Positions 8,228 to 63,688 of a DNA stretch of 64,000 bases are shown piece after piece; the first letter of the stretch is position 1, and every line of letters begins with the position of its first letter. Under the pieces are notes generated by a model. That model was not told the DNA's origin. It did not search any database and saw nothing but the letters and a program-made list of their open reading frames with translations. Location of the stretch: positions 523,210 to 587,209 of the forward strand of contig CAVRUC010000013.1 in assembly GCA_963724295.1 (NCBI GenBank), given 5' to 3'. The position numbers were made by a program, and so were the translations under genes. Origin of the DNA: an uncultured Chloroflexia bacterium. Lineage in GTDB: Bacteria > Chloroflexota > Chloroflexia > Thermomicrobiales > UBA6265.

Positions 8228-8233
8228 GTTACT

Positions 8234-8767: not shown

Positions 8768-8780
8768 CACCCGTCTTTGA

Positions 8781-19281: not shown

Positions 19282-19442
19282 TAGGTGTCAGGGTCGCAGG
19301 GTCGCAGGGTCGCAGGGTGGCTGGGTCGCAGGGAGAACCAGCCCGCCACCTCGCCACCCTGCCACCCTGCCACCGTGAGCGCAGCGAACAAATACCCTGC
19401 CACCACGAGCGCAGCGAGTAATCACCACGAGCGGAGCGAGTC
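19262..19442. repeat. composite word-repeat spacer inside the Mo-hydroxylase operon
   Basis: (GGGTGAT)x3 overlapping the stop codon at 19279-19281, (GGGTCGCA)x3-4, 'CCACCCTGCCACCCTGCCACC', and 'CACGAGCGCAGCGAGTAATCACCACGAGCGGAGCGAGTC'. Confidence 0.8.
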
Positions 19443-22175
19443 ATGACCTATCACGTCAACGGCAAGACGTTCTCCGAAGAGCCGGCGGCCGGCCAGTGCC
19501 TGCGCACCTTCCTGCGCGAGCTAGGCTGGTTCGGTGTGAAGAAGGGATGTGACTCAGGCGACTGTGGCGCCTGCACGGTCTGGGTCGACGGTGTGCCGGT
19601 CCATAGCTGTCTCATCCCGGCCTACCGCGCCGAGAATCTGGAGGTCACGACCATCGAGGGGTTGGCCAGGGACGGCGAGCTGCATCCGATGCAGCGCCAG
19701 TTCCTCGAGGCACAGGGGTTCCAGTGCGGGTTCTGCACTGCTGGCATGATCATGACGGCGTCCACCTTCACCGCCGAGGATCTCCAGGATCTGCCCCGGC
19801 ATCTCAAGGGCAACCTCTGCCGCTGCACCGGCTACCACGCTATCGAGGACGCGATCCATGGCGTTCGCACCGTCGAGGTGGATCAGCCCGGCACGGCTGT
19901 CGGATGCGGAGTCGGGGCCCCAGCTGGTCCTCAGGTCGTCACCGGCAAGGCCCGCTACACCCTCGACACCGCGATGGAGGGGATGCTCCACCTGAAGGTG
20001 CTCCGCTCGCCGCACGCCCACGCCCGCATCGTCTCGATCGACAAGAGCGCCGCGCTCGAGGTGCCAGGCGTGCATGAGGTCTTCACCTGGGAGGACGTGC
20101 CGCGCAAGCTCTACACCACCTCCATCCATGAGGACTTCCGCGTCGACCCCAATGACACCTACATGCTCGACAACGTGGTGCGCTTCGTTGGGGAGCGCGT
20201 GGCCGCCGTCGTGGCCGAATCAGAGGCCGCCGCCGAGGAAGGGTGCCGCAAGATCGCGGTCGAGTACGAGCTCTTGCCGGCCGTCTTCGATCCCGAGGAG
20301 GCGATGCGAGTAGGCGCTCCGGCCGTCCATGACAGGGGCGTGGACGCGTTCATTCGCAACCCGGAGCGCAACATCCTGATCGAAGTCCACGGTGGTGTCG
20401 GCGACGTCGACGCTGGTTTTGCCGGGGCGGACGTCATCCACGAAGGGACGTACTCGACGCATCGTGGCCAGCACGCGCACCTGGAGACGCACTGCTCGAT
20501 CGCCTGGGTCGACGAGGACAAGCGGCTGAATGTCCGCACCACGTCCCAGTCCCCGTTCATCTGTCGGGACAAACTCTGCTACTTGTTCGCCCTTGGTCGC
20601 CAAGACGTCCGTGTCTTCTGCGAGCGCGTGGGGGGCGGTTTCGGCGGCAAGCAGGAGGTGCTCACCGAGGATCTGACCGCGCTGGCCGCCATGAAGACCG
20701 GCCGGCCAGTGCAGTGGGAGTTCACGCGCGAAGAGCAGTTCGTGGCCAGCACCTATCGTCACCCGATGCGGACGACGGTCAAGCTCGGGGCGAAGCAGGA
20801 CGGCACGTTGACCGGCATCCAGCTCCGCATCGTCTCCAACACCGGCGCTTATGGGGGCCACGGCGGCGAGACCCTCTACCACGCCTGTAGTGAATCGGTC
20901 GCGCTCTATCGTTGCCCGAACAAGAAGATCGATGCCTACACGGTCTACACCAATACGGTGCCGTCGGGAGCCATCCGCGGCTACGGCGTGACGCAAACGA
21001 TCTATGCCGTCGAGAGCGCGATGGACGAGCTGGCCCGCGCGCTCGGCATGGATCCGTTCGAGCTGCGGCAGCGCAACGTCATCAAACCAGGCGACGCGAT
21101 GGTCTCCCTGAGCGAGGAGGCGAGCGACGCCGAGATCGCCAGCTATGGGCTCGACCAGTGCGTCGACATCGTCCGCGGCGCCCTGGCGCGCGGGAACGGC
21201 GTGACGGCCCCGGACGGAGATGACTGGCTGATCGGGCGGGGGATCGCCTACGCCATGCACGATACCGCGCCCCCCACGGAGCACCGCTCCGAGGCCCGCA
21301 TCACGCTGTTAGAGGACGGGACCTACGAGCTGGCCATCGGCACGGCGGAGTTCGGCAACGGCACCACGACCCAGCATGCGCAGATCACCGCCAGCTTGTT
21401 GGGCACGACGGTTTCCCGGGTACACGTCGTGCAGTCGGATACCGACCGCACCGGTTTCGATACCGGAGCCTTTGCCAGCACCGGCACGTCTGTCGCGAGC
21501 AAGGGGGTCGCTCTTGCCGCCGAGGCGCTGCGCGAGCGCATCCTCGAATTTGCCGCGACGCACACGCGGGTCCCCCGCGAGATGTGCCGGCTCGATGACG
21601 ACGCCGTGATCTGCGGCGAAGTGCGACTATCGCTGGCCGATCTCCACCAGGCGGCGGAGGAAGCTGGGCATCTGCTGGCGCTCTCCCGCAAGGCGTACGG
21701 ATCCCCCCGCAGCGTCGCCTTCAACGTCCATGGCTTCCGCATCGCGGTCCATCGCGTCACCGGCGAGATCACCATCTTGCAAAGCGTTCATGCCGCTGAC
21801 GCGGGCACGGTGATCAACCCGATGCAATTGCACGGACAGGTCGAGGGCGCGATATCGTGGGGGATTGGCTGGGCGCTCTACGAGCGGATCGTGATCGACG
21901 AGACTGGCAAGATCGTCAACCCGCAGTTCCGCAATTACCGCATCCCGGCCTACGCGGACATCCCGCGCAGCGAGGTCTATTTCGCGGATACGTGTGACCC
22001 GACTGGCCCGCTCGGAGCCAAGGGAATGGGCGAGTGCCCCATCAACCCGATCGCCCCGGCCCTGGCCAACGCCCTGGAGGACGCCACCGGCATCCGCTTC
22101 CGCGAACTGCCATTCCGCCCCGATTCCATCTACCGGCCGATCTTCGAGAAGCACGGAGCGGCTGTGGTTTCCTGA
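19443..22175 (+). CDS. fused [2Fe-2S] (CoxS-like) + molybdopterin-binding large subunit of a xanthine dehydrogenase/aldehyde oxidase-family enzyme
   Basis: '[16 protein letters not shown]...[13 protein letters not shown]...CRCTGY' followed by the Ald_Xan_dh large-subunit body ('GGGFGGK', 'KGMGE'). Confidence 0.9.
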
Positions 22176-33265: not shown

Positions 33266-33478
33266 TGTGATCCCGAGGGCACGAGCTTGCAGGATCTCGT
33301 CGGTGTCCTTAGCGCGGCGTCTGACCGGTCGGAAGTCGGAGGTCGGAAGTCGGAGGATTGTCCTCCGGCTATCAGCTATCGGCCATTAGCTTCCTACGAC
33401 TCACGACTGATCACGACTCACGATTCGCGGTCTCTCTTCTCCACTTACCGACTAACCGACTTACCGACTTACCGACTG
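33266..33478. repeat. modular word-repeat element, copy A
   Basis: 'gcgtctgacc', (GTCGGAA/GTCGGAG)x4, 'ccggctatcagctatcgg', (CGACTCACGA)-type words, 'ggtctctcttctc', and (CCGACTNA)x4 overlapping the stop of the DinB gene. Confidence 0.85.
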
Positions 33479-35703: not shown

Positions 35704-36904
35704 TTGCGTCTCAGTCAAGTCATCGTCTCCGTCCTCGCCCTGGCCACGGCCGGTTTCCTTCCCGTCGCCGCCCAGGAGGCCACCCCGGTCTCACCTCCTG
35801 CAGATGGGCAATTGACGGCGATCGTCGTCTCGGCGATCGGGGGTCCCATCGGCGTGCCGGGTAGCGATGGCCTGCAGCACATCGAGTATGACCTCGTGGT
35901 CACGAACGTCTTCAGTGCCCCCGTCGTGATTGTCGACGATCGAAGTCATTGGGCCTGACGGTAATCCTTTGCTGTCGCTCGCGGGCGACGCCCTCGTGGC
36001 GTCGACACAGCCACTCCTCGGATTGACGCCATTGCAGGAGATTCCCGCGTCTGGCACGGCAGCGGTCCTGATCGATGTGGCCGTTCCGCGCAACGAAGTA
36101 CCCCAGCGCCTCACCCACCGAATGACCTACACGCTTCCCGCCGATGCGCCCGGGGCGAGCCAGATCGAGAGTCTCACCGTCGATGGTCCCGAGCTGGTTG
36201 TCGATAACCGTGCCCCGGTGGTCATCGTCCCGCCCGTGCATGGTCCAGGGTGGCTCAATGCCTTCAGCTGCTGTGACGCATCGTCGATCCACCGCGGGGT
36301 CCGCGCGGCAGCCGATGGAGCCCGCATCGTGAAGTCAGAGACGTTTGCCATCGATTGGATCCTGTTCCAGGACGGTCGCCTCTTCGAGGATGACGGCTCG
36401 CGCAACGAGCAGTGGTTCTCCTACGGCGCCGAGGTCACCGCCGTCGCCCCGGGCACCGTCGTCTCCGCGCGCGACGGCCTGGCAGACGGGACGCCGAAGA
36501 GTCTGCCAGGCACGTTCCAGGAGCCACGTGACGGTGCGGGCAATCACGTCATCGTGCAGATCGAGCCCGGAGTCTGGGCGTTCTACGCGCACCTCCAGAC
36601 TGGGAGTGTCGCCGTCGAGATTGGCGATCAGGTCGTGACCGGACAGCCGCTTGGCCGGCTGGGCAACAGCGGGAACTCGATCGGGCCGCACCTGCACTTC
36701 GGGCTGATCGATGGCCCCAATCCATTGACCGCGAACAGCGTGCCGATGGTGATCGACCACTACAGTTTGACCGGTTCAGTCGACCCGGCATCGCTCTTCG
36801 CCAGCCTCGGCGATCCTGAGGCCTTGTCGCTGCGCATGGAAGCCACCGCACAACCCCAGAGCGGTACGCTGCCACTCAACATGACCATTACCGATTTCAG
36901 ATGA
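35704..36904 (+). pseudogene. secreted M23-family metallopeptidase with an apparent frameshift near 35925-35945
   Basis: AAGGAGAGGA RBS + TTG. The signal peptide 'RLSQVIVSVLALATAGFLPVAAQEATP' frame ends at 35958. The body, in another frame, carries 'HVIVQI..GVWAFYAHLQ' and 'LGNSGNSIGPHLHFGL'. Confidence 0.7.
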
Positions 36905-36931
36905 GTCGACCATGGTGATGGGTGAAGCTCT

Positions 36932-37537
36932 ATGACGCGCTCCCTCGTTATCGTCGTCCTCGCCTCCGGGCTGTCCCTGGGAGCAGTCGGTGGGGTCCTG
37001 GCCGGCTGGCACTGGTGGCAGGCGCCAGGCGGCAATACGCATGAAGTTCTCGCCGATGCCGGGATCGGTCACCCAATCTACGCGCTCGATCCGCGAGACG
37101 ATCGCGCGCTGGCTGCCTATGCGACCGATATCTTTATCGGCCGGGTCCTGGACCAGACGGGCGCCGCCGGCGCGCCGACCTCGGCGCCCGGGCAAGAGCT
37201 GCCGCAGTCGCAGTTCGCCGTAGAGGTCTTGCATGTGGTCAAGGGCCAGGCAGGAGGCGTGGTCACCGTCAACCAGGTCGGCGGCCTGGACACCCAGGTA
37301 GGGGAGCTCATGCAGCTCGAGGGGGACGCGCTCCTCCGTCCAGGGGCCAGCGAGCTGTTCCTGGTCGTGGCCGTTCCCGAGCGCGGCTGGTATCAGATCG
37401 TCGCGGCGGGACACGGCCATCTCCCCGCGGACGACCCCTCGCAGCGCGAGGCCCTGATCGACCGGTTCGCTCAGGCGACCGCACCCTCGGTGAAAGGCGC
37501 GTCTCCTGACGCTCGATCTCTGGGAGAGAGGCTATGA
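36932..37537 (+). CDS. N-terminally anchored hypothetical protein
   Basis: TM 'LVIVVLASGLSLGAVGGVLAG'. All-beta-looking core. The stop overlaps the next start. Confidence 0.6.
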   Translation: MTRSLVIVVLASGLSLGAVGGVLAGWHWWQAPGGNTHEVLADAGIGHPIYALDPRDDRALAAYATDIFIGRVLDQTGAAGAPTSAPGQELPQSQFAVEVLHVVKGQAGGVVTVNQVGGLDTQVGELMQLEGDALLRPGASELFLVVAVPERGWYQIVAAGHGHLPADDPSQREALIDRFAQATAPSVKGASPDARSLGERL

Positions 37538-38316
37538 GCCGCTGGGCGCGATCGGCAGGCATCACGAGTCTCGTCCTGACCTCGATCCTCCTGGTAGCTG
37601 GGACATCCACCCGCACCGGCGCCAGGGCGCAGGCGACCGACGAGCCGATTGATTTCATTCGCTTCAACGGCGCCGTCTATCTCTCGATCGCCTATCTCGC
37701 GGAGGACAGCCCGCCGGCTGCACCCTCGTCGCTTGCTCCCGGGGATCTGGGACCGGCGGTCGGTGAAGTGGTCACCAACTGGATCGACGGGAACGATGAG
37801 GCCCTGTATCCAAACGAGCCCTGCTATTGGGACACTCCCGACGGGACCGCGCCCCTGCTGGCGCCTGGAGACGACATCCACGCGGTGCACGGCTACGCGA
37901 CGACGTTCCGTCTCGCGGCCCGTCACGAAGGCGCCCTGGTCGCCTATCAGGTCTGGTGCAACGACGAGGCGGAGGTCGGCGCCGACCTCTTTGACATCTT
38001 CGACCGGGTGGATCGCATCAGCGTGACCGCTGACCTCTCGGAATCGTCGGGATTCGCCGTCATCGAGGATCGCGCGACGGTCGCGGATTTGGTGAACATG
38101 CTCCTGGAAGGACGGGTCATCCCGGAGGAGCTCTCCTCGGCGGCGCCCGTCACCCACCAGCTGATCTTCCATCTCGACGACGGCAGCACATTCCGCGCCT
38201 CCGCCGCACCGGGAGAGCTCCTCTGGGGGCTCGGAGCGGTCACGGTGCCGGCCGCATTCACCGAGACGCTCGACCACGCGGGGACGAGCGATCCGGGTGA
38301 GGAAGCTCCGGATTGA
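37534..38316 (+). CDS. secreted hypothetical protein
   Basis: Signal peptide 'ITSLVLTSILLVAGTSTRTGARAQA'. ATGA overlap with the upstream gene. The stop overlaps the next start. Confidence 0.6.
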   Translation: MSRWARSAGITSLVLTSILLVAGTSTRTGARAQATDEPIDFIRFNGAVYLSIAYLAEDSPPAAPSSLAPGDLGPAVGEVVTNWIDGNDEALYPNEPCYWDTPDGTAPLLAPGDDIHAVHGYATTFRLAARHEGALVAYQVWCNDEAEVGADLFDIFDRVDRISVTADLSESSGFAVIEDRATVADLVNMLLEGRVIPEELSSAAPVTHQLIFHLDDGSTFRASAAPGELLWGLGAVTVPAAFTETLDHAGTSDPGEEAPD

Positions 38317-39455
38317 GCATGAATGCCAGGCAGTGGGCAGGAACGCGCCCCGCACGAGGCCTCCTCATCGTCCTCTGCCTGCTCTTGCAGGCGCCGCTGC
38401 TCGGGTCCACTGGCGCGAGGGCGACGCAGACCGCGCCGCCGTCCCGGTCGCTGGACCCGGCATGCATCCGCTTTGACGATCCCAACGCGGTGGTCAACGG
38501 TGAGATCGTCTACGCGGCGTTCACCGCCTACGAATTTGGTCTCGACCACGCGGTCGACGCCTGGTCCCCGGCGCGGGGTTTCGCCGTTGCCTTCCGGGAG
38601 GCGGTCCCCATCGGCGACGCGGTTCCTGAAGAAGCAAATCTGATCTACCGCGACGTGGAGATTCCCGGGTCCGCGTTCAAGGGGGTGACCGTGACCTGGG
38701 CTCACGCCCCGGCGACGGTCACGCTCAACCGATCGATGCTCCCATCTCCCGAGACGACCGATCCGCTGGAGCAGGAGCTGATCCGGGCGGTGGTGACCCA
38801 TGAGACCGGGCACGCGCTGGGATTGGGCGACGTTCCGACGCCCGGCGTCAACATCCGTGAGTGCGCGAATATGCTGATGAAGCGGAGTGTCGACAAGGGC
38901 GGCGGGCACTTCACCGCGCCGCAACCGGCGGACATTGCCCTCTACTGCATGCGGTGGGGCGGAGCCATCTGCGGTAATCAGCCGGCGCCGATCGTGACGC
39001 CGGACCCGAAGCAAGGGTCGGAGCTGGAGGCGCACGCTTTCGCCTCACCAGCCCCGGCCGTCCAGAGCCAGACCACGACCGCGTATCGCTATCTCGTCGT
39101 GACGTGCGAATCGATCCCGGAAGGGGTCATCAAGCCCGATCAGGTCGAACGCGACGAGCTGCTCCTGGACTCCGGCAGCCGGTGCGTCCGCGCGCCGGCC
39201 GGCGTCTTGTTCCACGTGCACCTGAGCGATGGCGCCACGTCACTGGCGCTGACCGATCGCCGCGGCGAGTTTGCCGTTCAGAAGCCGAATGGCATCGGCG
39301 TCGAGGTTGACATGCCTGAGGGCGTGAACGGCAGGTTCCCCTCGCTCCTCGGCTACCAGCCGCTGGACGTCTTCGACCGTATCCCCGCCGACGATCCCGC
39401 ATGCCAATCTGAGACAGTGGAGGTCTGCAAGCGCGTCTATGTGCTGGTGCCGTGA
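38313..39455 (+). CDS. secreted zinc metalloprotease (HExxHxxGxxD, matrixin/snapalysin-like) with an unknown C-terminal domain
   Basis: 'RAVVTHETGHALGLGDVP'. Signal peptide 'GLLIVLCLLLQAPLLGS'. Confidence 0.75.
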   Translation: MSMNARQWAGTRPARGLLIVLCLLLQAPLLGSTGARATQTAPPSRSLDPACIRFDDPNAVVNGEIVYAAFTAYEFGLDHAVDAWSPARGFAVAFREAVPIGDAVPEEANLIYRDVEIPGSAFKGVTVTWAHAPATVTLNRSMLPSPETTDPLEQELIRAVVTHETGHALGLGDVPTPGVNIRECANMLMKRSVDKGGGHFTAPQPADIALYCMRWGGAICGNQPAPIVTPDPKQGSELEAHAFASPAPAVQSQTTTAYRYLVVTCESIPEGVIKPDQVERDELLLDSGSRCVRAPAGVLFHVHLSDGATSLALTDRRGEFAVQKPNGIGVEVDMPEGVNGRFPSLLGYQPLDVFDRIPADDPACQSETVEVCKRVYVLVP

Positions 39456-39480
39456 GCGAGGGATCAGTAGGGAGGGAACT

Positions 39481-40674
39481 ATGAGCGTCGTTCAATGCGG
39501 TTGTAATCAGTTTCGCTGGCGGCGGTTGGTCACACGTCGTCATCTCCTCAAGAGCGGCGCGGGTCTGGCCGCGCTCGGGCTGCACCTGCCCGCGTCACGC
39601 TTCGCGGCGCTGGCGCAAGAGGCGACGCCGGACGGAGCGCGCAATGGACTGGCGATGATTCAGGGCCAACATCCGTCCCCGGTCATCAATGGCTCGTACG
39701 TCAGCCCGCTGGTCGAGATCTACGGCGAGGTCGAGATCGGCCAGCGCTCCTTTATCGCCGGGAACACCCTGCTCTACGCCGCCGAAGGTGTTCGCATTCA
39801 CCTGGGTCATGAGAACAATTGCCAGGACAATGCATACCTGTTTGCGCGCGAGCAAAACCTCAGGTTCGGCGACATGGTCTCGATCGCCCATCAGGCGGTC
39901 ATCGAGAACTCGATCGTCGGAGACTTCACCTTCTTCGGTTTCCGCTCCCGCACCCGCAACTGCGAGATCGGCGAGGGCGCGATGGTCATGCACAACACGA
40001 CGGTCGAGAACGTCGTCATCCCGCCGAACCGGATTACTCCGCTCGGGGTCCGCATTACGACGCAGGCCGAGGCGGACGCCCTACCGGAGGTGACTGACGC
40101 CAACGACGAGTTCAAGCACGGGGTTCAGGAGGTCAACATCGCCTTTGTCGAGGGCTACACCGCCCTCTTCGAGCAGCTTGGCCGCGACGGAGTGGAAGGG
40201 ATTGGTCCGAACCCCGTCACGGATTTCAATCCGGTCTCGGTCTCCCCGCAGATCGGCGAGGGCGTCAGTCTCGCTGAGCTCGTCCGCATCACGGGGGACG
40301 TGCGGCTCGGGGAGGGAAGCACCGTCGGCCAGCGCTCCGCGATCCGCGCCGACGAAGGGACGCCGATCGTGATCGGGCGGCGCGCCCGCATCCGGAGCCG
40401 CGTCACGTTCCACGCTCTCGAGCACACCAGTGTCGAGGTCGGCGACAACGCCCAGATTGGAGACGGAAACGTCATCCATGGCCCTGTCAGCATCGGCGAC
40501 AACTTTGTCGCCGAAGACGATTGCGTCGTCTTCCAGGCCACGGTGGAAAACAATGTGACGGTCCGCACTGGCGCCACGGTCGCCGGCGAGTTCGTCCTCC
40601 GCGAGGGCACGATCGTTCCTGAAGGTGCGGTCGTCACCAACCAGGACGAGGCTGACGCGCTGCCTATCCGCTGA
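39481..40674 (+). CDS. Tat-signal-bearing tandem Cam-type gamma-carbonic-anhydrase-like (left-handed beta-helix) protein
   Basis: 'RWRRLVTRRHLLKSGAGLAALGL' then 'AQEATP'. There are two LbH repeats, each ending in a Cam-like 'T.Q.EADALP' motif. Details are given in the findings. Confidence 0.75.
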   Translation: MSVVQCGCNQFRWRRLVTRRHLLKSGAGLAALGLHLPASRFAALAQEATPDGARNGLAMIQGQHPSPVINGSYVSPLVEIYGEVEIGQRSFIAGNTLLYAAEGVRIHLGHENNCQDNAYLFAREQNLRFGDMVSIAHQAVIENSIVGDFTFFGFRSRTRNCEIGEGAMVMHNTTVENVVIPPNRITPLGVRITTQAEADALPEVTDANDEFKHGVQEVNIAFVEGYTALFEQLGRDGVEGIGPNPVTDFNPVSVSPQIGEGVSLAELVRITGDVRLGEGSTVGQRSAIRADEGTPIVIGRRARIRSRVTFHALEHTSVEVGDNAQIGDGNVIHGPVSIGDNFVAEDDCVVFQATVENNVTVRTGATVAGEFVLREGTIVPEGAVVTNQDEADALPIR

Positions 40675-40757
40675 TTGCCGACTCGCTCGAGAAGGCGCGG
40701 AGTCGAAATAGAGTAGTGTTTCACGGGCGGGGTAGTGGAGTTGAGCGTGGTGGGTCA

Positions 40758-41970
40758 ATGGCTGATTTCGATCTCGCGGTGATAGGCGGGGGCATCGTCG
40801 GGTTGTCGACGGCGATGCAGATGACGGAGCGGTTTCCGGGGATCTCCGTCGCGGTGCTGGAGAAGGAGCCCGCGCTGGCGCGCCATCAGACCGGGCGCAA
40901 CAGCGGGGTCATCCACGCCGGTGTCTATTACCAGCCGGGAAGTCTCAAGGCCCAGTTCTGTCGCGAGGGCGTGGAGGCGACGACGCGGTTCTGTCGCGAG
41001 CGGGGCATCGCCTACGAGCAGTGCGGCAAGCTGTTGGTGGCTACCGAGCCCGCGGAGCTTCCCCGCATGGAGGCGCTCTACGAACGCGCCCGCGCCAACG
41101 GCATCGACATCGAGCGCCTGGACAAGGCGGAGGTCGCCCGGCGCGAACCGCGTATTCGCGGGCTGGCTGGGCTCTTCGTCAAGACCACCGGCATCGTCGA
41201 CTACGCCCAGGTCGCCAAGGCGATGGCCGGCGTCGTCGCCGAGCGCGGCGGCGCGATTCTCACCTCGAGCGAGGTGGCCCACGTCGAGGAGACACCTTCG
41301 GGCGTGACCCTCGACGTGGGAAGAGATCGCATCAAGGCCCGGCACGTCATCGCCGCGGCCGGTCTCCAGGCGGACCGGATCGCGCGGTTGTGCGGCGTCG
41401 ACGTCGATTTCCGCATCGTGCCCTTCCGGGGCGAGTACTACCGGCTAGGGGCCGACAAGGACTCGCATCGTCAACCATCTGATCTACCCCATCCCCGACC
41501 CGGAGCTGCCCTTCCTCGGTGTGCACCTGACCCGCATGATCGGCGGCTACGTCACGGTCGGGCCGAACGCGGTCCTCGCCTTCGCGCGGGAGGGCTACGG
41601 CTTCGGATCAGTCAGCCTGCGCGACCTGCGCGAGATGGCGACATTCTCCGGCTTCCGCCGGGTCATCCGGGACAACCTGAAGTCCGGGGCGCTGGAGATG
41701 GCCAACTCGCTGCTGAAGTCACGTTATCTGGCGCTCTGCCGTCGCTACTGCCCGGAGCTGGAGCTGTCAGACCTCTCGCCCTATCGCTCCGGTGTGCGCG
41801 CCCAGGCCGTGCTGGCGGACGGCACCATGGTCCACGATTTTCTGATCGGCGAGACGGACCGCACCATCCACGTCCTGAACGCTCCCTCGCCGGCGGCGAC
41901 CTCCTCCATCCCCATCGGCCGCCACATCACCCGGCTGGCGGAGCAGAAGTTCGCCTGGAAAGCGGCATGA
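40758..41970 (+). pseudogene. lhgO: L-2-hydroxyglutarate oxidase with an apparent frameshift near 41455-41465
   Basis: 'FDLAVIGGGIVGLSTA...RNSGVIHAGVYY...FRGEYYRL' then, in another frame, 'RIVNHLIYPIPDPELPFLGVHLTRMIGGYVTVGPNAVLAF...NAPSPAATSSIPIG', matching my memory of E. coli LhgO. Confidence 0.75.
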
Positions 41971-42125
41971 CGCTGGAACGGCGTCTGACGAGTCGGAGGT
42001 CGGAAGTCGGAAGTCGGAAGTCGGAAGATCGGTCCGCCGGCTATCAGCTGTCAGCTATCAGCTATCGGTCTCTTCTCGTTCTAGCCGTCTAGCCGACTCA
42101 CCGACTCACCGACTCACCGACTTAC
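41971..42125. repeat. modular word-repeat element, copy B
   Basis: Same module order as 33266-33478: 'gcgtctgacg', (GTCGGAA)x4, 'ccggctatcagctgtcagctatcagctatcgg', 'tctcttctc', (CCGACTCA)x3 + CCGACTTA. It overlaps the stop of 42114..43427. Confidence 0.85.
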
Positions 42126-43427
42126 CGACTCTCGTCGCGTCCACGCCGCTGCCGCCTCGACCCGACTGACGTCGTACTCCACCCTCAGAGCCTTCTGGAC
42201 TTCGACCAACAGGGCCGACGCCTGCTCCCGCAATGGCTCTTGTTGGGTAACGGAAACGCGCGCCGCGACCGCCCCCAACGTTGTCATCAGGTGCGTGGCG
42301 ACGAGTGCGTCTCCCGCCCCATAGTGCCGGATCTGGGTGAACGCCACGTCAATCAACCGCGCAAAGGACGGACCTCGTAGCACGACACGCCCGCCGCTGG
42401 GACCTGCTAGCACTTCGGTTTCGTCGCGGCTGGCGGCGCGAACCAGGAGCTGACCGAGACGGTCGATGCACAACGTGGCCGTGGTCGGGTCGTTGACGGC
42501 CGGTGACAGGGCCCGCACCGCGATGTCGGCCAGCTGCCGAATCCCCAGCTCGACGTCTTGCTGGCGCGTTCGCTCAGGGCCGAGCACAAAGGCGGCGCGC
42601 AGCCGCTCCTCCAGGTCCGGCTCGACCATCCCCTGAGGCCAGACGGTCGCCAGGGGTGCGCCGGACAGAAGAAAGCTCCCCACCGGAGCCTCGGTTCGCA
42701 CCACCAGCCCTCGCATCCCGGCTGCCGCCAGTAAGGCCCCGGCGTCGATCGCCTCCAGGTAGCCGTCTCCGTGCGACGCGATGGTCTCCCCGGGCTCCGC
42801 TGGTAGCGCCGGCCCAGCCAACGCGGGAGCGTGGTCGTCATGAGCCTCGCCGGCGAGCGGTTCGGCGAGCAGATCCAGAGTGTCGTGAGTGACACGCTTG
42901 ATGATGACGGCGACCTGCACGGAGCGGGCGACGTGGTTGATGGTGTAGATCATGAAGCCAATGCTGACCAGCGCCAGCACGATGGCGACGGCGACCGCGG
43001 TGACCGGCACGAATCCCGGGCCGCCTCCATTCTCATCCGACGAACGCACGGCCCGCAGAACGATCAGCGCGTACGTGAAGGTGCCCAGGAAGACCCCGAG
43101 CACGACCTGCGTGCCGCGGTCTCCGGTGAGATTGCGCATCACCCGCGGTGTGAACTGAGCGGAGGCGATCTGCAAGACGACGATCGTCAGGGAGAAGACG
43201 ACGCCGAGGACGGAGAGCGTCGTACCGGCGATGGCGAAGAGGACACCCCGAGCCCCATCCGCGCCTCCGACAGCCCAGGCGTCGCGGCCCTGGGTGTCGA
43301 GTCCGAGAGCTCGATCGGCGCGCAGCAGCACCAGGGCCAGCGCGGCATACGCCAGGGCGATCACCGTCGGGGTGAACCAGAGGCTGTCGAGCAGGTCGCG
43401 CTGCAGGGCCCGCAGGCGTGCCGGCAC
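42114..43427 (-). CDS. DUF2254-like membrane protein
   Basis: N-terminal 'LQRDLLDSLWFTPTVIALAYAALALVLL' plus further TM helices and a soluble C-terminal half. The family call is from memory. Confidence 0.65.
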   Translation of the reverse strand: MPARLRALQRDLLDSLWFTPTVIALAYAALALVLLRADRALGLDTQGRDAWAVGGADGARGVLFAIAGTTLSVLGVVFSLTIVVLQIASAQFTPRVMRNLTGDRGTQVVLGVFLGTFTYALIVLRAVRSSDENGGGPGFVPVTAVAVAIVLALVSIGFMIYTINHVARSVQVAVIIKRVTHDTLDLLAEPLAGEAHDDHAPALAGPALPAEPGETIASHGDGYLEAIDAGALLAAAGMRGLVVRTEAPVGSFLLSGAPLATVWPQGMVEPDLEERLRAAFVLGPERTRQQDVELGIRQLADIAVRALSPAVNDPTTATLCIDRLGQLLVRAASRDETEVLAGPSGGRVVLRGPSFARLIDVAFTQIRHYGAGDALVATHLMTTLGAVAARVSVTQQEPLREQASALLVEVQKALRVEYDVSRVEAAAAWTRRESVSR

Positions 43428-43874: not shown

Positions 43875-44711
43875 TTACTCCGCCCGGCGCCGTGAGAAGC
43901 GGCGAATCTGGCTGAGGATGGTCGGGATGAAGAGTGCGCCGACGATGACGAAGGTGATGAGCGTCGTCAGCGTCCCCAGAGCGTAGAGATCCGGCTCGAT
44001 GATCTGCACGGTCAGCATTGCCCACAATTGCAGGGGCAACGTGTTCTGAGAGGTGGCGAGCACGCTCCGCTCGAACTCGTTGAGCGAGAGGGTGAAGCCG
44101 AAGAGCGCGGCGCTGAGAACGCCCGGCCAGATGATCGGGAAGACGACCTCGAAGAACGTGCGCAGCTCGCCGGCGCCGAGATCGCGCGCCGACTCCTCGA
44201 TACCGGGATCGAACCGGTTGAGGACTGCCACCATGACCAGGAACGCGAACGGCAGCGCCCAGACAACGTGCACGCCGAGCAGTGAGAGGTGACCCGGCTG
44301 CATATTCAGGAGCCGCCACCACAGGCTGACCCCCAGACCGAGCAGGATCCCGGGTGTCATCAGTGCCAGCAGCACCGTCGGGAAGAGCAGTCTCGTGCCG
44401 GGCAGCCGCCGCCGGTAGGCGAAGGCGATGACCAGGCTGAAAGCCGCCGCGATCAGGCCCGTCTCGACCGCGACGACGAGCGTGCGTACGATCGCCTCTC
44501 CCAGCTCCGATGCGCGCTCGCCGAAGAGCCGCTGCCACCAATGCAGACTCACGCCCTTCAGCGGGAATGTCATGCCGCCCTGCGGTCCCTGGAAGGAGAG
44601 CACCGCCATGATGATGATCGGTCCGTAGAGGAAAAGCAGGATCAGAGCGAAGTAGAGACCGAGACCGACGTTGAGCCACCTCCCGCCCTGGAGGCTCTTG
44701 GTCCGTCCCAT
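43875..44711 (-). CDS. ABC transporter permease (PotC-like)
   Basis: 6-TM permease. Its start overlaps the upstream stop. Confidence 0.85.
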   Translation of the reverse strand: MGRTKSLQGGRWLNVGLGLYFALILLFLYGPIIIMAVLSFQGPQGGMTFPLKGVSLHWWQRLFGERASELGEAIVRTLVVAVETGLIAAAFSLVIAFAYRRRLPGTRLLFPTVLLALMTPGILLGLGVSLWWRLLNMQPGHLSLLGVHVVWALPFAFLVMVAVLNRFDPGIEESARDLGAGELRTFFEVVFPIIWPGVLSAALFGFTLSLNEFERSVLATSQNTLPLQLWAMLTVQIIEPDLYALGTLTTLITFVIVGALFIPTILSQIRRFSRRRAE

Positions 44712-45634
44712 CAGAGCCCCTCCGCGATCCGCCCATAGCGGAAGAGGACAGCGACCCCGGCCACCGTGACCAGGACCAGGATGCTGGCGGCCGCGGCGGC
44801 CTGCGGAAACTGGATGTAGGTGACGAAGTTCTGGATACCGAGACCGACCGAGCTGGTCTTACCGCCCCCGATCAAGCGCACGGTGGCGAACTCACCCATG
44901 CTCAGCACGAAGACGAAGACCGCGCCGATCACGATCCCCGGTCGCGCCAGGGGCAGCAGAATCTCGGTCAGCATGGCCCACCAGCCGGCGCCGGAATCGC
45001 GAGCTGCCTCCAGGATCGCGGGCTCGATCGTGGAGAGCGAGAAGAAGATCGGCGAGACCATGAAAAGGAGATAGAGCTGGATCATCGCCACCCGCACGGC
45101 AAAGTCCGAGAAGAGCAGGAAGTCGAGCGGCTGCGCGGTGATCCCCAGGTTGAGCAGAGCGGAGTTGAGGAACCCTTCGCGACCCATCATCGGGATCCAG
45201 GCAATCGCCCGGATCAGGAAACTGGTGAAGAACGGAGCCAGCAAGATGATGAACAGCGCGAACTTCCGCCGCAAGTCGGGCACCACCAGCGCCAGGTAAT
45301 ACGCCACCCAGAACCCGAGCAGGAACGTCACCACGGTGGTGATCACGGCGTTGAGGACCGTGTTGCCCAGGGTGCGGATGAAGACGTCCGAGTCCGCCAG
45401 GAGCCGGTAGTTGTCGAGCGTGAAGACGCGGTTGAAGCCGCTCAGCGTCGGCTCGAAAAAGCTGACGACGAGCACGACCACCACCGGGATGATCAGGAAT
45501 GCCAGCAGCCAGGCGACAGGGAAGGCCAGCAGCAGCGCCCAGGCGCTACCCGCCGCCAGGCGTAGGCGGGAGGCTGCAGCCGGGGGCGCGGCGCGGGTAT
45601 CCGCCGCGACGCTAGGCGAGGAGGAGCTGGACAT
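44711..45634 (-). CDS. ABC transporter permease (PotB-like)
   Basis: Start placed at 'MSSSSPS...' (45634), overlapping the ATPase 3' end. EAA-loop-like 'LEAARDSGAGWW'. Confidence 0.8.
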   Translation of the reverse strand: MSSSSSPSVAADTRAAPPAAASRLRLAAGSAWALLLAFPVAWLLAFLIIPVVVVLVVSFFEPTLSGFNRVFTLDNYRLLADSDVFIRTLGNTVLNAVITTVVTFLLGFWVAYYLALVVPDLRRKFALFIILLAPFFTSFLIRAIAWIPMMGREGFLNSALLNLGITAQPLDFLLFSDFAVRVAMIQLYLLFMVSPIFFSLSTIEPAILEAARDSGAGWWAMLTEILLPLARPGIVIGAVFVFVLSMGEFATVRLIGGGKTSSVGLGIQNFVTYIQFPQAAAAASILVLVTVAGVAVLFRYGRIAEGL

Positions 45635-46769
45635 CCTCAGGCTCCCACTCCAGGCGGACCGGCTCGCCTTCCACCAGACCCTCCCAGGCGCGGACGTTCT
45701 CGGCTCGCTTCGCCACGACCGTCCGCCCATTGGCAAGGCGGCAGTGCAGCTTCACGATGTCACCCAGGTATTCCAGGAAAATGAGCGTGGCGAGGACCTG
45801 ATTTGGTCGCTCCCCAGGCACGGCGCCATCGCCGAGCGGCGGCTCGGCGGAGACGCTGCCGGCCCGTACCGACGCGTGGAGGTTCTGCCCGACGGCAATG
45901 CCGGCTCCGTCGTGGCGAGCCAGGAGCCTCAGGCCATCGCCTTCGATCCAGACCTGACCGTCGGCGATCGCGCTGACCTGACCCGGTACGACGTTGTTGT
46001 CCCCCATGAACCCGCTGGTGAAGAGGTTGGCCGGGTGCCGGTAGACATCCTGCGGTCTCCCCACCTGCTGGATCCGCCCGTCCTGCATCACCACGATCTG
46101 ATCGGCGATGGCCAGCGCCTCCTCCTGGTTGTGGGTGACGTGGATGAAGGTGATCCGCAAGCGGCGCTGCAACGCGCGTAGCTCGACCCGCATCCGCAGC
46201 TGGAGCAGGCGGTCGAGGTCGCCCAGCGGCTCGTCGAGGAGCAGCACCGTTGGCTCGGTGACCAGGGCGCGGGCGAGCGCCACCCGCTGCTGCTGCCCGC
46301 CGGAGAGCTGGCGGGGTCGCCGCTCGGCCATTGACCTGAGATCCAGAAAGTCGAGCGCTTCTTCCGCCCGCCGCCGCCGTGCCTCTCGCGGCAGACCCCG
46401 CATCTTGAGACCGAACTCCACGTTGTCCCGCACGGACTTGTGCGGAAAGAGCCCGTAGTGCTGGAAGACGGTCGAGATGTCGCGGCGGGCTGGCGGGACG
46501 TCGTTCGTGCGGATACCGTCCAGGAGGAACTCACCCTCGTCGATCGTGGCATGGCCGCCGAGCATCCGCAGCAGCGTCGTCTTGCCGCAGCCGGAGGGAC
46601 CGAGCAGCACGACGTAGCTGCCGCCAGGCACAGTCAGGTCGACCTGATCGACCGCCGTGATGCCCTCGAACCGCTTGGTGACGCCGCGCAGGACGACCGT
46701 GCCCTTACCGCTCTCCGTGGCAACGGAATCCGCGGCTGGGGTCTGTTCCCGCGTCACGACGGCCGCCAT
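45612..46769 (-). CDS. ABC transporter ATP-binding protein (PotA-like)
   Basis: 'GPSGCGKTT', '[15 protein letters not shown]' and 'LLLDEPL'. Confidence 0.9.
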
Positions 46770-55760: not shown

Positions 55761-56322
55761 ATGCTTCGATCCGCCACGCATACGCCCAACGTCTCGATTG
55801 CTGAATCGGGACCGACCGGGTTCATCCAGCAGACCATCCCGTACGTGTACGCGTTCGCCCTGGGGGCTGCCCCTGTCCTGGACAGTCGCATGCCACTTGG
55901 CAGGATCGTCACCGTTGCCGTGGCCGATGGCACACGCCCTTCCCATGCTCCTGATGATCTGTTCGCCAGGCGAGTTCCTGGTATCCCGGCCGTCACTGGT
56001 CCAGTCCATGTGACCGGGGTCCGCCGGGGTGACAACCTCGAGATCGAGCTGATCGCACTCGAAGCGAACAACTCAGGATCGATCGGTCAGCTCCTCGCCA
56101 CCATCGGAGTCGCAAGCGGTGACGCGAGGCGAGATGCTGGATCCAGTCCAGACCACTATCCCCGTCGGCGGATTCGTGCGAATGACGGCTCGGCAACCCG
56201 GCGGTCTGTTCCTATTCGGGCCGGTTGTTGCAAGGCGGAACCGTAACGGAGCTCCGTGCGAAGAGCCCGTGGCCGCCCGGATGATGGTCCGCTGCACGGT
56301 CGTTCAGTCTGACAGCGTTTGA
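55761..56322 (+). pseudogene. short, probably degenerate acetamidase/formamidase-like gene
   Basis: 'APVLDSRMPLGRIVTVAVAD...IPAVTGPVHVTGVRRGDNLEIELIALE' resembles the FmdA/AmdA N-terminus. After about 56100 the frame becomes Arg-rich, and a second frame (56119..56322) reads 'IPVGGFVRMTARQPGGLFLFGPV...MVRCTVVQ'. Confidence 0.35.
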
Positions 56323-56324
56323 CC

Positions 56325-56669
56325 ATGGACGCCGTTCGCATTTCCCCCATCTGGGTTGGTTTGCTTGTCGCGTCGATCCTCTGTGACGTGGTTGCCACCG
56401 CCTATCTGAAATGGGCAGGCGACCGGTTTTCCGCCAACTTCCTTCTCGCCAACATCCTGAGCGTCGGCCTTTTCGCGCCGGCCATCGTCACCTTCGGTTA
56501 CGCCTTGCGCGAGGGACCGAGCTATCTCGTGACCACCCTTGTCTGGCTGGTGGGGCTGACGGTTGGCAACACCCTGGTCGGCGTACTGGCCTTCGGCGAT
56601 CCGTTCGGTCTAGCCAAAGCGGCCGGTTTGTGCGCCGCGGTGCTGGCGCTGGTACTGCTCACCGCCTGA
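56325..56669 (+). CDS. SMR/DMT-superfamily small 4-TM transporter
   Basis: About 114 aa with four TM helices. Confidence 0.65.
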   Translation: MDAVRISPIWVGLLVASILCDVVATAYLKWAGDRFSANFLLANILSVGLFAPAIVTFGYALREGPSYLVTTLVWLVGLTVGNTLVGVLAFGDPFGLAKAAGLCAAVLALVLLTA

Positions 56670-56747
56670 CTCGCGGGCCGTCGGGCACTCGGGAAGATTC
56701 CGCGTCGTCGCGGGGCGTGGGTTCGCTCGGCTGCAAAGGGACACCTG

Positions 56748-57881
56748 ATGAACGCGGAGCTGCTGCCAACCACCATCGACCCGCCGCACGCGACTCTTCC
56801 CAGCGCTCCCGCCATCGCGACTCGGTGGCGCTGGCTCGCGATCGCCTCCGTCCTTGCGGCGGCGTGCTGCTGGGCGACGCAGGGCGTCGCCTACGATTTG
56901 ATCCTCGACGGCATCCGGACCGATGGCCTGACCGTGGTGACCCTGCGGGCGATCACGGCCACCGTGCTGCTCTGGGGCTGGCTCGCGATCACCGACCGGT
57001 CAGCCCTCAAGATCCCGCGATCGGATCTCCCCGCGTTTGCCGTGCTCGGGCTCGTCGCCATCACGATCTTCTACCCGGCGCTCTTCTACGCCTACGCGTG
57101 GACGAGTGTCAGCGTCGCGAGCACGCTGCTCTACCTCGCCCCGGCGCTCGTGACCCTCGGTGCGGCCGCATTCCTGGGCGAGGCGCTGACCCGCGGCAAG
57201 AGCGTGGCGCTGGTGCTGACGTTCGTTGGTAGCGCCCTGATCGTCCAGATCACCCAGCCCGCCAACCTGACCGGCAATGCGGCGGGAATCGCGATCGGGC
57301 TCGTGGCCGCGGCCAGCTACGCCACCTACAGCCTGCTCGGCAAACACCTGCTGCGGCGGCACCGCATGGCGACCGTCCTGGCCGCCTACCTCCTGCTCGG
57401 CACCCTGCTGCTCATTGCCCTGAAGCTGGTCGTCGCCCCGCAAACCTGGCCCGCCCCCCGGGAGGCCCTGACGATCGGGCTCTACACCGGCGTGATGACA
57501 ACCCTGGTGCCGATCACGCTCTTCACCTTCGGCCTGAGCCGGCTGCCATCCGGTGACGCCACGATCCTCCTCACCTTCGAGCCAGTAGTGGCCTTTGTCC
57601 TCGCCGCCGCGGTCCTCGGGGAGTCGCTCGACACCGGCCAGTGGCTAGGGGCCGTAGCCGTTCTCGGCGGTGTTCTGCTCCTCACGATCTGCGGTCGAGC
57701 GCCTGTTCGCACTGGCAACGTCAGGCCGCGTCGCTCACATCGTGAGCCGCGACGATGCTGGATCGGCACCAGGATTGGATGCCGGCAGCCACTCCCGCTG
57801 CATCAGCCCCGATGCTTCCTCGAGTGGTCAGCCAGGGGTCGCACCCACGGTCAGTCCGTCGCGTGCCCGCTACCGAGATGA
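56748..57881 (+). CDS. EamA-family (DMT) transporter
   Basis: 10-TM pattern with two EamA repeats. The last ~60 aa are Arg-rich and may not be genuine. Confidence 0.8.
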   Translation: MNAELLPTTIDPPHATLPSAPAIATRWRWLAIASVLAAACCWATQGVAYDLILDGIRTDGLTVVTLRAITATVLLWGWLAITDRSALKIPRSDLPAFAVLGLVAITIFYPALFYAYAWTSVSVASTLLYLAPALVTLGAAAFLGEALTRGKSVALVLTFVGSALIVQITQPANLTGNAAGIAIGLVAAASYATYSLLGKHLLRRHRMATVLAAYLLLGTLLLIALKLVVAPQTWPAPREALTIGLYTGVMTTLVPITLFTFGLSRLPSGDATILLTFEPVVAFVLAAAVLGESLDTGQWLGAVAVLGGVLLLTICGRAPVRTGNVRPRRSHREPRRCWIGTRIGCRQPLPLHQPRCFLEWSARGRTHGQSVACPLPR

Positions 57882-59194
57882 GCTGGCCGCGCATAGTCTT
57901 GCTCCTCGGGACCATGCTCCTCGGTGTGCTGGGAGGGACCGCGCTCCTCCTGGCCGTGGCGATAGAGATCCCGGCGACCGCGCGTGCGGACTCCGTCGCG
58001 GAAAATGCGGCGATTGCGCGTCGGTTCTACGCCGCGGTCAACGATGCCGTGCGCACTGGTGACCTCTCTCTCCTGGACCAGGTGGCGGACACGACGGGAA
58101 CAGGGTGCGACGTGCGCTGCCGCGTGAGCGCCCTCCATCGGCTTGCCCCGGACGTGCGGTTGCAGGTCGACGATCTGCTCGTCGACGGGGACCGGGTCGC
58201 CGTCCACCTCTCCCTCCAGGGCAATGAACGGCCCGTCCTGCTCGGGCTCCCGCTCGAGGGCGACCTCGCGCCGTGGGGTCCGGTCGATTTCCTGCGCGTC
58301 GATGATGGCCAGATCGTCGAGGTGCAGCCGGCTGGCGACCTTCCGTCGCTCGTCGAGCCATTGGGACGCATGACGCTGGAGACGGTTCCTGCCGCTCCAT
58401 ACCGGCTCGGTCTCGTCCGTCTGACCCTCGAACCCAGCGCGGCAATCACAGAGTTGTCCGCGCAGGGACCGGTCTTCTTGCTCGTCGAGAGCGGAACACT
58501 GGTCGTCGACGTCGACCAGCCGTCTCGGGTCCAGAGTGCTGAAGCCGCCGGCAATCCGGGACGCGACGAGCTTCGCGCCGCCGGAGCCATCACGCTCTCT
58601 CCCGGTGAGCGGATTGCCCTTGTCGCCGGCACGGGCTACTCGCTGCGCGGCATCTGGAAACGAGCCAGCCGTCGTTCTGAGCGCCGCCGCTCTGGCGGGA
58701 GACGGGGGACCTACCGAATCGCTGGATTCGGGCGCGGTCCCTCGATGAGATCCTCTTCAATCCGGGGGAACCGGAGCTAGTGGCTCAGACAAGCGAACCC
58801 ACCATATTGGCCCCCCGGCGTGCGGAGCGAATTGATCGCCTCCGGGATCATCAAGACGCGACCGGCGGAATCAGCGACACTCGAGCTGACCCGCCTTACG
58901 CTGGCGCCGAATGCGGCGCTCCCAATCCACGATACATCAGCGGAACTGCTCGCGGTCGATACCGGCGCAGCCGTCGTTGACCTGGTCGCTGGTGATGGAG
59001 CCATGCGTTCCCGAACCCGTGCGCTGCAAGTGACAATCTGGTCCCAAGGGAGCAGCTCAGCGCGAGATTCGAGGCTGACTGAGGGTGGCGCCGCCGTGCT
59101 GCAGCCGGGATCATCCGCTGGCGTCCGCAACGTCAGGGGTGATCCGCTCGTCCTGCTGATTCTCACGATTGAACCGGATTCCGGTCCGGCATAA
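57878..59194 (+). pseudogene. membrane-anchored SnoaL-like + double cupin-like protein, apparently broken by two or more frameshifts
   Basis: 'MSWPRIVLLLGTMLLGVLGG', and 'ENAAIARRFYAAVNDAVRTGD' (SnoaL-like). Module 1 ends in 'GTGYSLR' and then goes out of frame (~58645). Module 2 is in ORF 58820..59194 ('LELTRLTLAPNAALP...LQPGSSAGVRNVRGDPLVLLILTIEP'). Confidence 0.55.
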
Positions 59195-63191: not shown

Positions 63192-63688
63192 GCGTGCCCT
63201 TCCCCACTGCCGCCCGGGCGGGCCGGACCACCTGTATCGGAGTGTGCAAGGATCGGGCCGCGGATCGACCCGATGAGAGAACCTGCACGGGGCTTTCGGC
63301 TCCCATAACGCCTATTATCGAGTCCACTACTTACGACTACGCGGGAGAACGCTTCTCGGCCTCGCTAGCGTCGAGTTCCACGAGGTCGTCGAGTCTGGAT
63401 CAGCCGAAGGGGCACCCGCCGACCACATGCTGGACACGCCTCAGCGCGTGACGGCTGGTCATCTCCGATAAAGACCCGGGATGTCAAGCTGAGACACGTC
63501 TCGAACGGAAGGTGTGCCGGCCATGCGCGGAGCCGGGAGATCCTCGTTGTCTCAGAAACGAGAAACTGATCACTCTGCTGCAAGCACGCTGGCGCTCCCG
63601 GCGCAGGAAACCAGGCTTGCGCGGCCGCACCGATGGAAAAGGGGTTCAGGTCCCTGAGCAATAGCCGAGACGATGGTTCTGGGCGTGT

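Follow-up and report, generated by a model that had tools for sequence, protein, structure and literature searches.

A tandem gamma-carbonic-anhydrase-like protein from Chloroflexia with a putative composite metal site shared by two diverged domains

Gamma-class carbonic anhydrases (CAs) are described as obligate trimers with active sites between identical subunits. In Cam, the gamma-CA of Methanosarcina thermophila, one subunit gives His81 and His122 to the metal site and the adjoining subunit gives His117. A 64,000-nucleotide stretch of DNA from an uncultured Chloroflexia bacterium of the Thermomicrobiales (GenBank assembly GCA_963724295.1, contig CAVRUC010000013.1, forward-strand positions 523,210 to 587,209; hereafter the window) encodes a protein of two Cam-like domains, each of which has lost part of this triad. 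The locus raises the question of how such a chain could form an active site. Our results suggest that the product is probably an exported single-chain pseudo-heterodimer, in which two diverged domains of the Cam/CcmM type would build one composite Cam-like site; its geometry, metal binding, catalysis and oligomeric state we infer from the comparisons below.

The identity of the two domains is supported by sequence and fold comparisons. Pfam detects hexapeptide repeats (Hexapep) with an E-value of 3.5e-22. A phmmer search of the PDB gave the gamma-CA domain of CcmM (3kwc) as the best match (E 1.7e-26), together with about ten Cam entries, 1thj and 1qrf among them (E about 1e-24), and each of these entries matches in two stretches, the query having a gamma-CA domain in either half. 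Two NCBIfam models match with E about 1e-48, carbonic anhydrase (carb_anhyd, NF040597) at 164.6 bits and CcmM (NF053794) at 161.5 bits, neither reaching its cut-off of 380 and 550, respectively. A single-chain Foldseek comparison of the AlphaFold2 (AF2) model returned Cam and CcmM structures at the top (3otm, 3kwc and 1qq0, probability 1.00). The two left-handed beta-helix repeats that a previous sequence-only reading had aligned with Cam are therefore recovered by PDB, NCBIfam and Foldseek matches for both halves. Domain 1 (D1) and domain 2 (D2) are 25-29% identical to each other (E 3e-9) and each is slightly closer to Cam (32-34%); D2 lacks the C-terminal helix.

Two other identities were considered and rejected. 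A hexapeptide acyltransferase of the LpxA/LpxD/GlmU/SAT type obtained NCBIfam scores of just 20-49 bits against cut-offs of 150-700. A CcmM scaffold protein is disfavored by the score against NF053794, by a second half that is a gamma-CA domain rather than an SSUL repeat, and by the presence of an export leader.

Ligands and second shell divided between two domains

Ligand positions were placed by HMMER and MAFFT alignments to Cam. The Cam sequence used, with His at 81, 117 and 122, agrees with the aligned PDB chains, so the numbering, which the sequence-only reading had named as a possible point of failure, holds. All peptides quoted in that reading were found in the translation, and its assignment of Phe/His/Glu to D1 and His/Asp/His to D2 at these three positions is reproduced exactly by the formal alignment (Table 1). 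Neither domain alone has the triad, which becomes complete only when D1 and D2 are combined.

To analyze the distribution of this arrangement, homologues were collected in three ways. An initial search with the protein gave over 120 close relatives at 46-98% identity, mainly from metagenome-assembled genomes (MAGs) of Thermomicrobiales and Chloroflexia and annotated as 'carbonate dehydratase'. A genome scan with one genome per species identified 115 encoding loci, and 80 of them were retrieved; the loci include Cyanobacteria (Scytonema, Nostoc, Chroococcidiopsis, Microcoleus, Leptolyngbya and Gloeobacteraceae) as well as Deinococcus, Rubrobacteraceae, Solirubrobacter, other Actinomycetota, Gemmatimonadaceae, Acidobacteriota and Burkholderiales. 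When 1.84 billion cluster representatives were searched exhaustively with HMMER, 265 proteins were obtained at E <= 1e-10, many of them two-domain proteins at merely 29-40% identity. The 231 alignable tandem proteins fall into three sets, the Chloroflexota clade (n=106), the genome loci of other phyla (n=79) and distant representatives (n=46).

The complementary pattern that had been predicted for homologues, x-H-x / H-x-H at positions 81, 117 and 122 of D1 / D2, is present in 214 of the 231 tandem proteins from at least six phyla, and also occurs in representatives at 29-50% identity. Judged from these alignments, a pattern of this frequency is not due to chance, and the predicted two-domain, split-site design is one that recurs in several hundred bacterial proteins. 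The retained ligands are close to invariant: His117 of D1 is His in 106/106 clade members, 79/79 loci and 43/46 distant representatives, His81 of D2 in 106/106, 79/79 and 44/46, and His122 of D2 in 105/106, 79/79 and 44/46. The lost positions vary. Position 81 of D1 is never His in any set. Both closer sets have mainly Leu there (in the clade Leu in 81, Ile in 9, Thr in 8, Phe in 6 and Met in 2), and the distant representatives have Asp, Leu, Arg, Thr or Asn. Position 122 of D1 is Glu in 88, Gln in 5, Thr, Lys and Val in 3 each and His in 2 of the clade members, and Lys, Glu, Arg or Val elsewhere.

Minority patterns are x-H-x / H-H-H (7/231) and x-H-H / H-x-H (3/231). A full triad in D2 next to an x-H-x D1 was seen at four genome loci (L042, L051, L053 and L059), whose hosts are a Burkholderiaceae member, an Acidobacteriota member, a bin labelled Klebsiella and a Polaromonas; the contig of L053, from a MAG labelled 'Klebsiella pneumoniae', looks mis-binned. 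The state seen in these homologues may be an intermediate one or the ancestral one.

The residues around the metal are divided in the same manner. In gamma-CAs an Arg59-Asp61 salt bridge is formed within a subunit, while Asp76 bridges between subunits. Arabidopsis complex I has one complete site, to which the His117 donor (CA1) gives the equivalents of Asn73, Gln75, Asp76 and the Tyr200 region, and the His81/His122 donor (CA2) gives Arg59. D1 of the tandem proteins keeps Asn73, Gln75 and Asp76 (105/106, 104/106 and 106/106 in the clade; 79/79, 78/79 and 79/79 in other phyla) and, on its C-terminal helix, Asn202 (104/106 and 78/79), and has lost Glu62. D2 keeps Arg59, Asp61 and Glu62 (105/106, 106/106 and 102/106; 79/79, 79/79 and 77/79), and has lost Asn73 and Gln75. 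Conservation is thus 98-100% for Asn73, Gln75, Asp76, His117 and Asn202 of D1 in the clade and the genome loci, and 96-100% for Arg59, Asp61, Glu62, His81 and His122 of D2. Conservation of Gln75, Asp76, His117 and Asn202 of D1 is 93-98% among the distant representatives, 41/46 of which have Asn (28) or Asp at position 73. The aromatic residue of D2 equivalent to Trp19 is Trp or Phe in nearly all close members and Phe or Trp in 34/46 distant representatives.

Each chain therefore has the whole second shell of Cam (Arg59, Asp61, Glu62, Asn73, Gln75, Asp76 and Asn202) a single time, divided between D2 and D1, and apart from Glu84 in the loop the same holds for every catalytic residue of Cam. In the Chloroflexota clade alone, to which the protein of the window belongs, D1 has also lost Arg59 and Asp61 and D2 has lost Asp76 (S306), so that R289 of D2 and D116 of D1 are the only pair left that could form an Arg59-Asp76 bridge. 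The residue counts suggest a second shell divided as would be expected if only the interface between the His81 corner of D2 and the His117 corner of D1 were under selection.

We then propose a model for the composite site. D1 and D2 would pack side by side, resembling two adjoining subunits of the Cam trimer. D2 would contribute His311 and His333 (Cam His81 and His122) with Arg289, Asp291 and Glu292, while D1 would contribute His137 (His117) with Asn113, Gln115 and Asp116, plus Asn219 from its C-terminal helix. The reciprocal half-sites appear to have decayed (F121 and E142 in D1; D328, R303 and S306 in D2), which would leave one site per chain and make the canonical trimer unnecessary. The activity predicted from the sequence is most likely the reversible interconversion of CO2 and bicarbonate outside the cytoplasmic membrane.

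Pairing of the domains and alternative assemblies

Separate profile hidden Markov models were built from the D1s and from the D2s. The two profiles sort every domain of the distant tandem proteins cleanly, while single-domain Cam and CcmM proteins score equally with both. Two proteins carry the domains in reverse order, a D2-type domain followed by a D1-type domain (P0164, 368 aa; P0215, 402 aa), which indicates that the pairing of D1 with D2 matters and their order does not.

Mean-field direct coupling analysis (DCA) was performed on the 231 sequences. Many of the top pairs are 17-19 residues apart, the coil-stacking distance of a beta-helix, which argues that the method picks up real contacts. 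The top inter-domain couplings connect A221 (Cam 204) on the D1 helix with D248/F249 (Cam 18/19) of D2, E217 and G214 (Cam 200 and 197) on the same helix with E314 (Cam 84), and F154 and A136 (Cam 135 and 116) in the His117 column of D1 with L313 (Cam 83), a residue adjoining His81 of D2; further ones are I220 with Q352 and V218 with L313. In Cam numbering, the D1 helix (197-204) is coupled to D2 at 83-85, 141 and 18-19. Of the 40 highest-ranking inter-domain pairs, five join the D1 helix to the His81 corner of D2, where 0.47 would be expected, and the reciprocal combination of the D1 His81 corner with the D2 His117 corner is not enriched (one of the 40, 1.06 expected). Corners were assigned from the hexapeptide register, in which Cam has a four-residue irregularity near 64-68 and a long loop. 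Together, ligand conservation, the second-shell split, the reverse-order fusions and coevolution support the earlier proposal that a single complete three-histidine site could form only at the D2/D1 interface.

A second interface based on charge covariation between position 122 of D1 (Glu versus Lys/Arg) and positions 73/75 of D2 (Arg versus Glu) was also considered. It was rejected because the covariation is essentially a difference between two clades, has counter-examples (L003, L012, L014 and L030) and shows no enrichment in DCA.

The AlphaFold prediction suggested in the sequence-only reading was run for the monomer with the 106-sequence alignment and gave a compact two-domain model, with a mean predicted local distance difference test (pLDDT) score of 87 and a predicted template modeling (pTM) score of 0.91, the latter indicating a defined packing of the two modeled domains. 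D1 and its 28-residue helix have pLDDT values of 93-99.

The tandem unit is also found within larger proteins. It lies N-terminal to 4HB_MCP, HAMP and methyl-accepting chemotaxis protein (MCP) domains in P0127 (1084 aa), with a complete site, and P0140 (1288 aa), with a degenerate site, and in other fusions it lies C-terminal to FG-GAP repeats or DUF4214. These fusion proteins, with an MCP, FG-GAP or DUF4214 partner, are P0127, P0140 and P0131; P0150/P0175; and P0237. They suggest that the tandem unit is self-contained, and the chemoreceptor-fused module could be a CO2/bicarbonate sensor domain. Hosts of the module include soil and dryland organisms, namely crust cyanobacteria, Deinococcus, Rubrobacter, Solirubrobacter and Thermomicrobiales. 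It is tempting to speculate, with somewhat less than even confidence, that D1-D2 is a self-sufficient, non-trimeric gamma-CA module that is widespread in soil and dryland bacteria and has been recruited as an extracytoplasmic input domain of chemoreceptors, in which it could sense CO2/bicarbonate directly.

Several observations weigh against a single-chain, catalytic composite site. The acidic loop of the Cam subclass is missing from both domains in the seed alignment, the proton shuttle Glu84 is not kept, and position 84 of D2 is variable (Lys, Glu or Leu) in the clade alignment. Measurable CA activity has never been shown for the plant gamma-CA heterotrimers with one complete site. At the His117 position of D2, Asp is well conserved among close members (84/106 and 70/79) and may point to a 2-His-1-carboxylate site between two D2 domains. 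Outside the Chloroflexota, D1 keeps Arg59/Asp61 and D2 keeps Asp76, so a second canonical interface, and hence a higher-order assembly, is possible there. The DCA alignment is shallow (effective number of sequences 122), and the residue sets for the enrichment were fixed after the top pairs had been seen. In the AF2 model, pLDDT is only 65-76 in the N-terminal coils of D2, which carry R289, H311 and H333. With regard to export, the Pfam model TAT_signal scores 16.5 bits (E 0.008), short of its cut-off of 22.7.

These points give rise to three alternatives. The one that survives best, though we regard it as unlikely, is a non-catalytic module whose composite site binds a metal together with bicarbonate/CO2 or a small anion for sensing, scavenging or structure. 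The chemoreceptor fusions, one complete and one degenerate, would fit such a role, as would the absence of Glu84 and the acidic loop and the precedent of the plant complex I module, which has one complete site and binds inorganic carbon. However, the other catalytic residues of Cam (Glu62, Gln75, Asn73, Asn202 and Arg59) are conserved, CcmM is active despite the missing acidic loop, and the exported stand-alone proteins carry no output domain.

On the oligomeric state, the most serious alternative is a layered homotrimer, in which D2 would form a trimer with 2-His-1-carboxylate sites (H311, H333 and the neighbor's D328) on top of a metal-free, structural D1 trimer. It owes this rank to the fairly good conservation of Asp328 in the close family, where position 117 of D2 is Asp in 84, Glu in 9 and Asn in 8 of the 106 clade members and Asp in 70 and Glu in 2 of the 79 loci. 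Every characterized gamma-CA is a trimer, the complete H-H-H set is found in D2 of seven tandem proteins, and the cyanobacterial-type clade has Arg59, Asp61 and Asp76 in both domains. In distant members, however, position 117 is occupied by Phe, Asp, Val, Asn, Ser, Glu, Tyr, Pro or Lys, and hence does not serve as a general ligand. A layered trimer would also leave unexplained why D1 holds His117, Asn73, Gln75, Asp76 and Asn202 nearly invariant while losing His81 and His122. In the Chloroflexota clade a D2-D2 interface would lack Asp76 (S306), Asn73 and Gln75, and a D1-D1 interface would lack Arg59. Coevolution ties the helix and His117 corner of D1 to the His81 corner of D2, and the two domain types are also fused in reverse order. 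We therefore consider a layered homotrimer improbable.

Least plausible is a canonical heterotrimer completed by a separately encoded third beta-helix subunit, or by a domain of a second chain, hitch-hiking through the twin-arginine translocation (Tat) route: gamma-CAs and other left-handed beta-helix (LbH) proteins are normally trimeric, hetero-oligomers are reported to be able to travel via Tat, and single-chain triple gamma-CAs (P0134 and P0138) show that a trimer can be hard-wired, but neither an LbH gene nor a conserved neighbor was found near the gene in the window and three other genomes (the neighbors in these four contexts are unrelated, with RNase III, PRPP synthetase, a transposase and RraA among them), the free faces in this clade lack the Arg59 (D1) and Asp76 (D2) that canonical interfaces need, the contact between the D1 His81 corner and the D2 His117 corner has no coevolution signal, and most homologues are exported by Sec or as lipoproteins, which is incompatible with pre-assembled partners.

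Leader, gene and surrounding DNA

The gene lies in an open reading frame (ORF) at 39439-40674 on the forward strand, and about 105 full-length homologues of 390-400 aa share an N-terminus at the Met equivalent to the ATG at 39481. These aligned N-termini, together with the Shine-Dalgarno sequence GGGAGGG, identify this ATG as the true start, which gives a product of 397 aa.

The N-terminal leader has the elements of a Tat signal. The Tat consensus is S/T-R-R-x-F-L-K, which the motif T-R-R-H-L-L-K fits. The twin arginines are followed by a hydrophobic stretch (GAGLAALGL) and then by A43-L-A45 and Q46; in the cleavage region A43, A45, Q46, E47, T49 and P50 are conserved in the clade. The Tat leader proposed in the sequence-only reading is thus made plausible by the conserved arginines, the hydrophobic stretch and the A-x-A site, and weakened by the Pfam score given above. 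Upstream of the twin arginines lies a C-G-C-D-E-x-x-W-R-R motif, which is kept in clade members without a hydrophobic signal region (L018-L021) and may be a metal-binding or export-proofreading element.

Outside the Chloroflexota, the leaders are Lys-rich and of Sec type, or bear a lipobox. Lipobox-like sequences (FAGC, LMAC, LSAC and VAVAC) were observed in the leaders of L042, L059, L069 and L072, and some family members are accordingly probably lipoproteins rather than soluble exported proteins. An extracytoplasmic location, as predicted from these leaders, looks universal for the stand-alone tandem proteins. Since the Tat leader is confined to the Chloroflexota clade, it is a lineage trait and gives no evidence that the fold or metal loading needs Tat. 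Export in folded form by Tat, as put forward earlier, is therefore plausible for the clade on the strength of its predicted leader, and is not a requirement of the family, given the Sec-type and lipobox leaders elsewhere.

Table 1. Coordinates of the tandem gamma-CA gene, its leader, domains and metal-site residues in the window.
Feature	Position	Strand	Basis or conservation
Gene for the 397-aa tandem gamma-CA-like protein	39481..40674	+	ORF, homologue lengths of 395-397 aa, domain matches
Shine-Dalgarno GGGAGGG, 4 nt 5' of ATG 39481	39470..39476	+	Read from sequence
Leader peptide, aa 1-45; predicted signal-peptidase site after aa 45 (A-L-A, then Q-E)	39481..39615	+	Inferred from conservation
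C-G-C-(D/N)-(E/Q)-x-R-W-R-R motif, leader n-region, aa 6-15	39496..39525	+	C6 78/106, C8 92/106, W13 90/106
Twin-arginine motif T-R-R-H-L-L-K, aa 18-24	39532..39552	+	R19 97/106, R20 92/106
D1, aa 60-233, beta-helix and long C-terminal helix; putative His117-donor half-site	39658..40179	+
D1 N113-C-Q115-D116, Cam Asn73/Gln75/Asp76, kept	39817..39828	+
D1 F121, Cam His81 position, ligand lost	39841..39843	+
D1 H137, Cam His117, ligand kept	39889..39891	+
D1 E142, Cam His122 position, ligand lost	39904..39906	+
D1 C-terminal helix, aa 206-233, with N219 (Cam Asn202)	40096..40179	+	AF2 helix, mature residues 161-188
D2, aa 236-397, Cam-like N-terminal segment (NPVTDFNP) and beta-helix; putative His81/His122-donor half-site	40186..40671	+
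D2 R289-A-D291-E292, Cam Arg59/Asp61/Glu62, kept	40345..40356	+
D2 H311, Cam His81, ligand kept	40411..40413	+
D2 D328, Cam His117 position, ligand lost	40462..40464	+
D2 H333, Cam His122, ligand kept	40477..40479	+
Stop codon of the tandem gamma-CA gene	40672-40674	+

Directly upstream of the gene, four genes lie on the same strand (35930-39455, +), an M23 peptidase followed by three without a Pfam match, the last two of the run having signal-peptide-like N-termini. The last of them (38313-39455) contains HETGHALGLGD, a zinc-protease motif of the form HExxHxxGxxD, which we take to resemble that of snapalysin. Downstream (40716-41970, +) is a gene for a FAD-dependent oxidoreductase (Pfam DAO) that looks like L-2-hydroxyglutarate oxidase. 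It is frameshifted near 41455-41480, the DAO match resuming in another frame from about 41521 (IYPIPDPELPFLGVHLTRMI), and is either a pseudogene or the product of an assembly error.

Between convergent genes at 41991-42131, about six copies of AGTCGGA are followed about 60 nt on by about five copies of CCGACTCA. Folded together, the two arrays give a single long hairpin with interruptions (-73.8 kcal/mol, z -3.9, with none of 200 shuffles as good). Comparable intergenic arrays of 7-8-nt repeats occur at 33327-33477 and 19289-19448, and such short-repeat arrays may serve as a terminator particular to the lineage or be a repeated extragenic element. Positions 1-10000 of the window have a G+C content of 54-61% versus 63-70% in the remainder and may be a horizontally acquired segment. 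AT skew departs from a background near zero at 44001-46000 (+0.25), 56001-58000 (-0.17) and 62001-64000 (+0.18). Scans of the window for tRNA genes and Rfam families gave no matches.

Relation to known gamma-class enzymes and implications

The tandem protein shares with Cam (PDB 1thj, 1qrf) the left-handed beta-helix with a C-terminal helix, the catalytic residues and an N-terminal leader after which both mature proteins, the tandem one by prediction, begin with Q-E. It differs in having no acidic loop and no Glu84 and in its sub-threshold NF040597 score. Cam is a homotrimer of a single domain with three identical interface sites, whereas here two diverged domains leave one possible site. CcmM of the beta-carboxysome, the best PDB match, likewise has no long acidic loop, yet is active. 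However, CcmM forms homotrimers in the cytoplasm (carboxysome), with a full His triad in each domain followed by RbcS-like (SSUL) repeats, which the tandem protein does not have.

The closest parallel in principle is the gamma-CA/CAL heterotrimer of plant complex I (Arabidopsis CA1/CA2/CAL2), where diverged subunits leave one interface with all three His and the second shell is split between the His117 donor and the His81/His122 donor. That heterotrimer is made up of three individual CamH-subclass chains, membrane-anchored on mitochondrial complex I, and its degeneration is partial and lineage-variable, whereas the tandem protein shows a clean reciprocal loss within one exported bacterial chain. 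CsoSCA, the beta-class CA of the alpha-carboxysome, is also a single-chain pseudo-dimer with a duplicated CA fold, the metal site having been lost in one copy. It belongs to another fold class, and its site lies within one domain, whereas that of the tandem protein would need both copies.

Single-chain triple gamma-CAs offer a further comparison. In P0134 (828 aa) and P0138 (824 aa) the residue set RDENQDHEHHN is complete in each of the three domains, and these proteins are hard-wired canonical trimers with three sites, whose domains are not specialized into D1 and D2 types. The trimer has thus been hard-wired in more than one way. A third protein, P0162 (819 aa), has three Cam-type domains, all degenerate.

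No description of a tandem gamma-CA was found in the open full-text literature, subscription journals lying outside the scope of this search. A 2023 review of cyanobacterial CAs covers only EcaA, EcaB, CahB1, CcaA, CsoSCA and CcmM, and a tandem gamma-CA is not among them. The name 'CahG', considered for an extracellular cyanobacterial gamma-CA, had no link to carbonic anhydrase in the open literature; it is unconfirmed and was not used. The earlier remark that no description of the arrangement was known has to be narrowed: plant complex I already provides a heteromeric gamma-CA in which a single site is complete, and it is only the single-chain, two-domain form that appears to be undescribed.

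If the composite-site reading is true, the tandem protein would be a natural single-chain gamma-CA, in which duplication and reciprocal loss have cut three sites to one and locked the two halves into a single chain, and a non-trimeric module would break the rule that gamma-CAs work only as trimers. The family would then provide a clean natural experiment on how an interface active site evolves after duplication, a bacterial, soluble and tractable counterpart to the puzzling gamma-CA module with one site in plant complex I, and a compact scaffold for engineering. For its hosts, the tandem protein would be a candidate for an extracellular enzyme or sensor of CO2/bicarbonate in soil-crust and dryland organisms.

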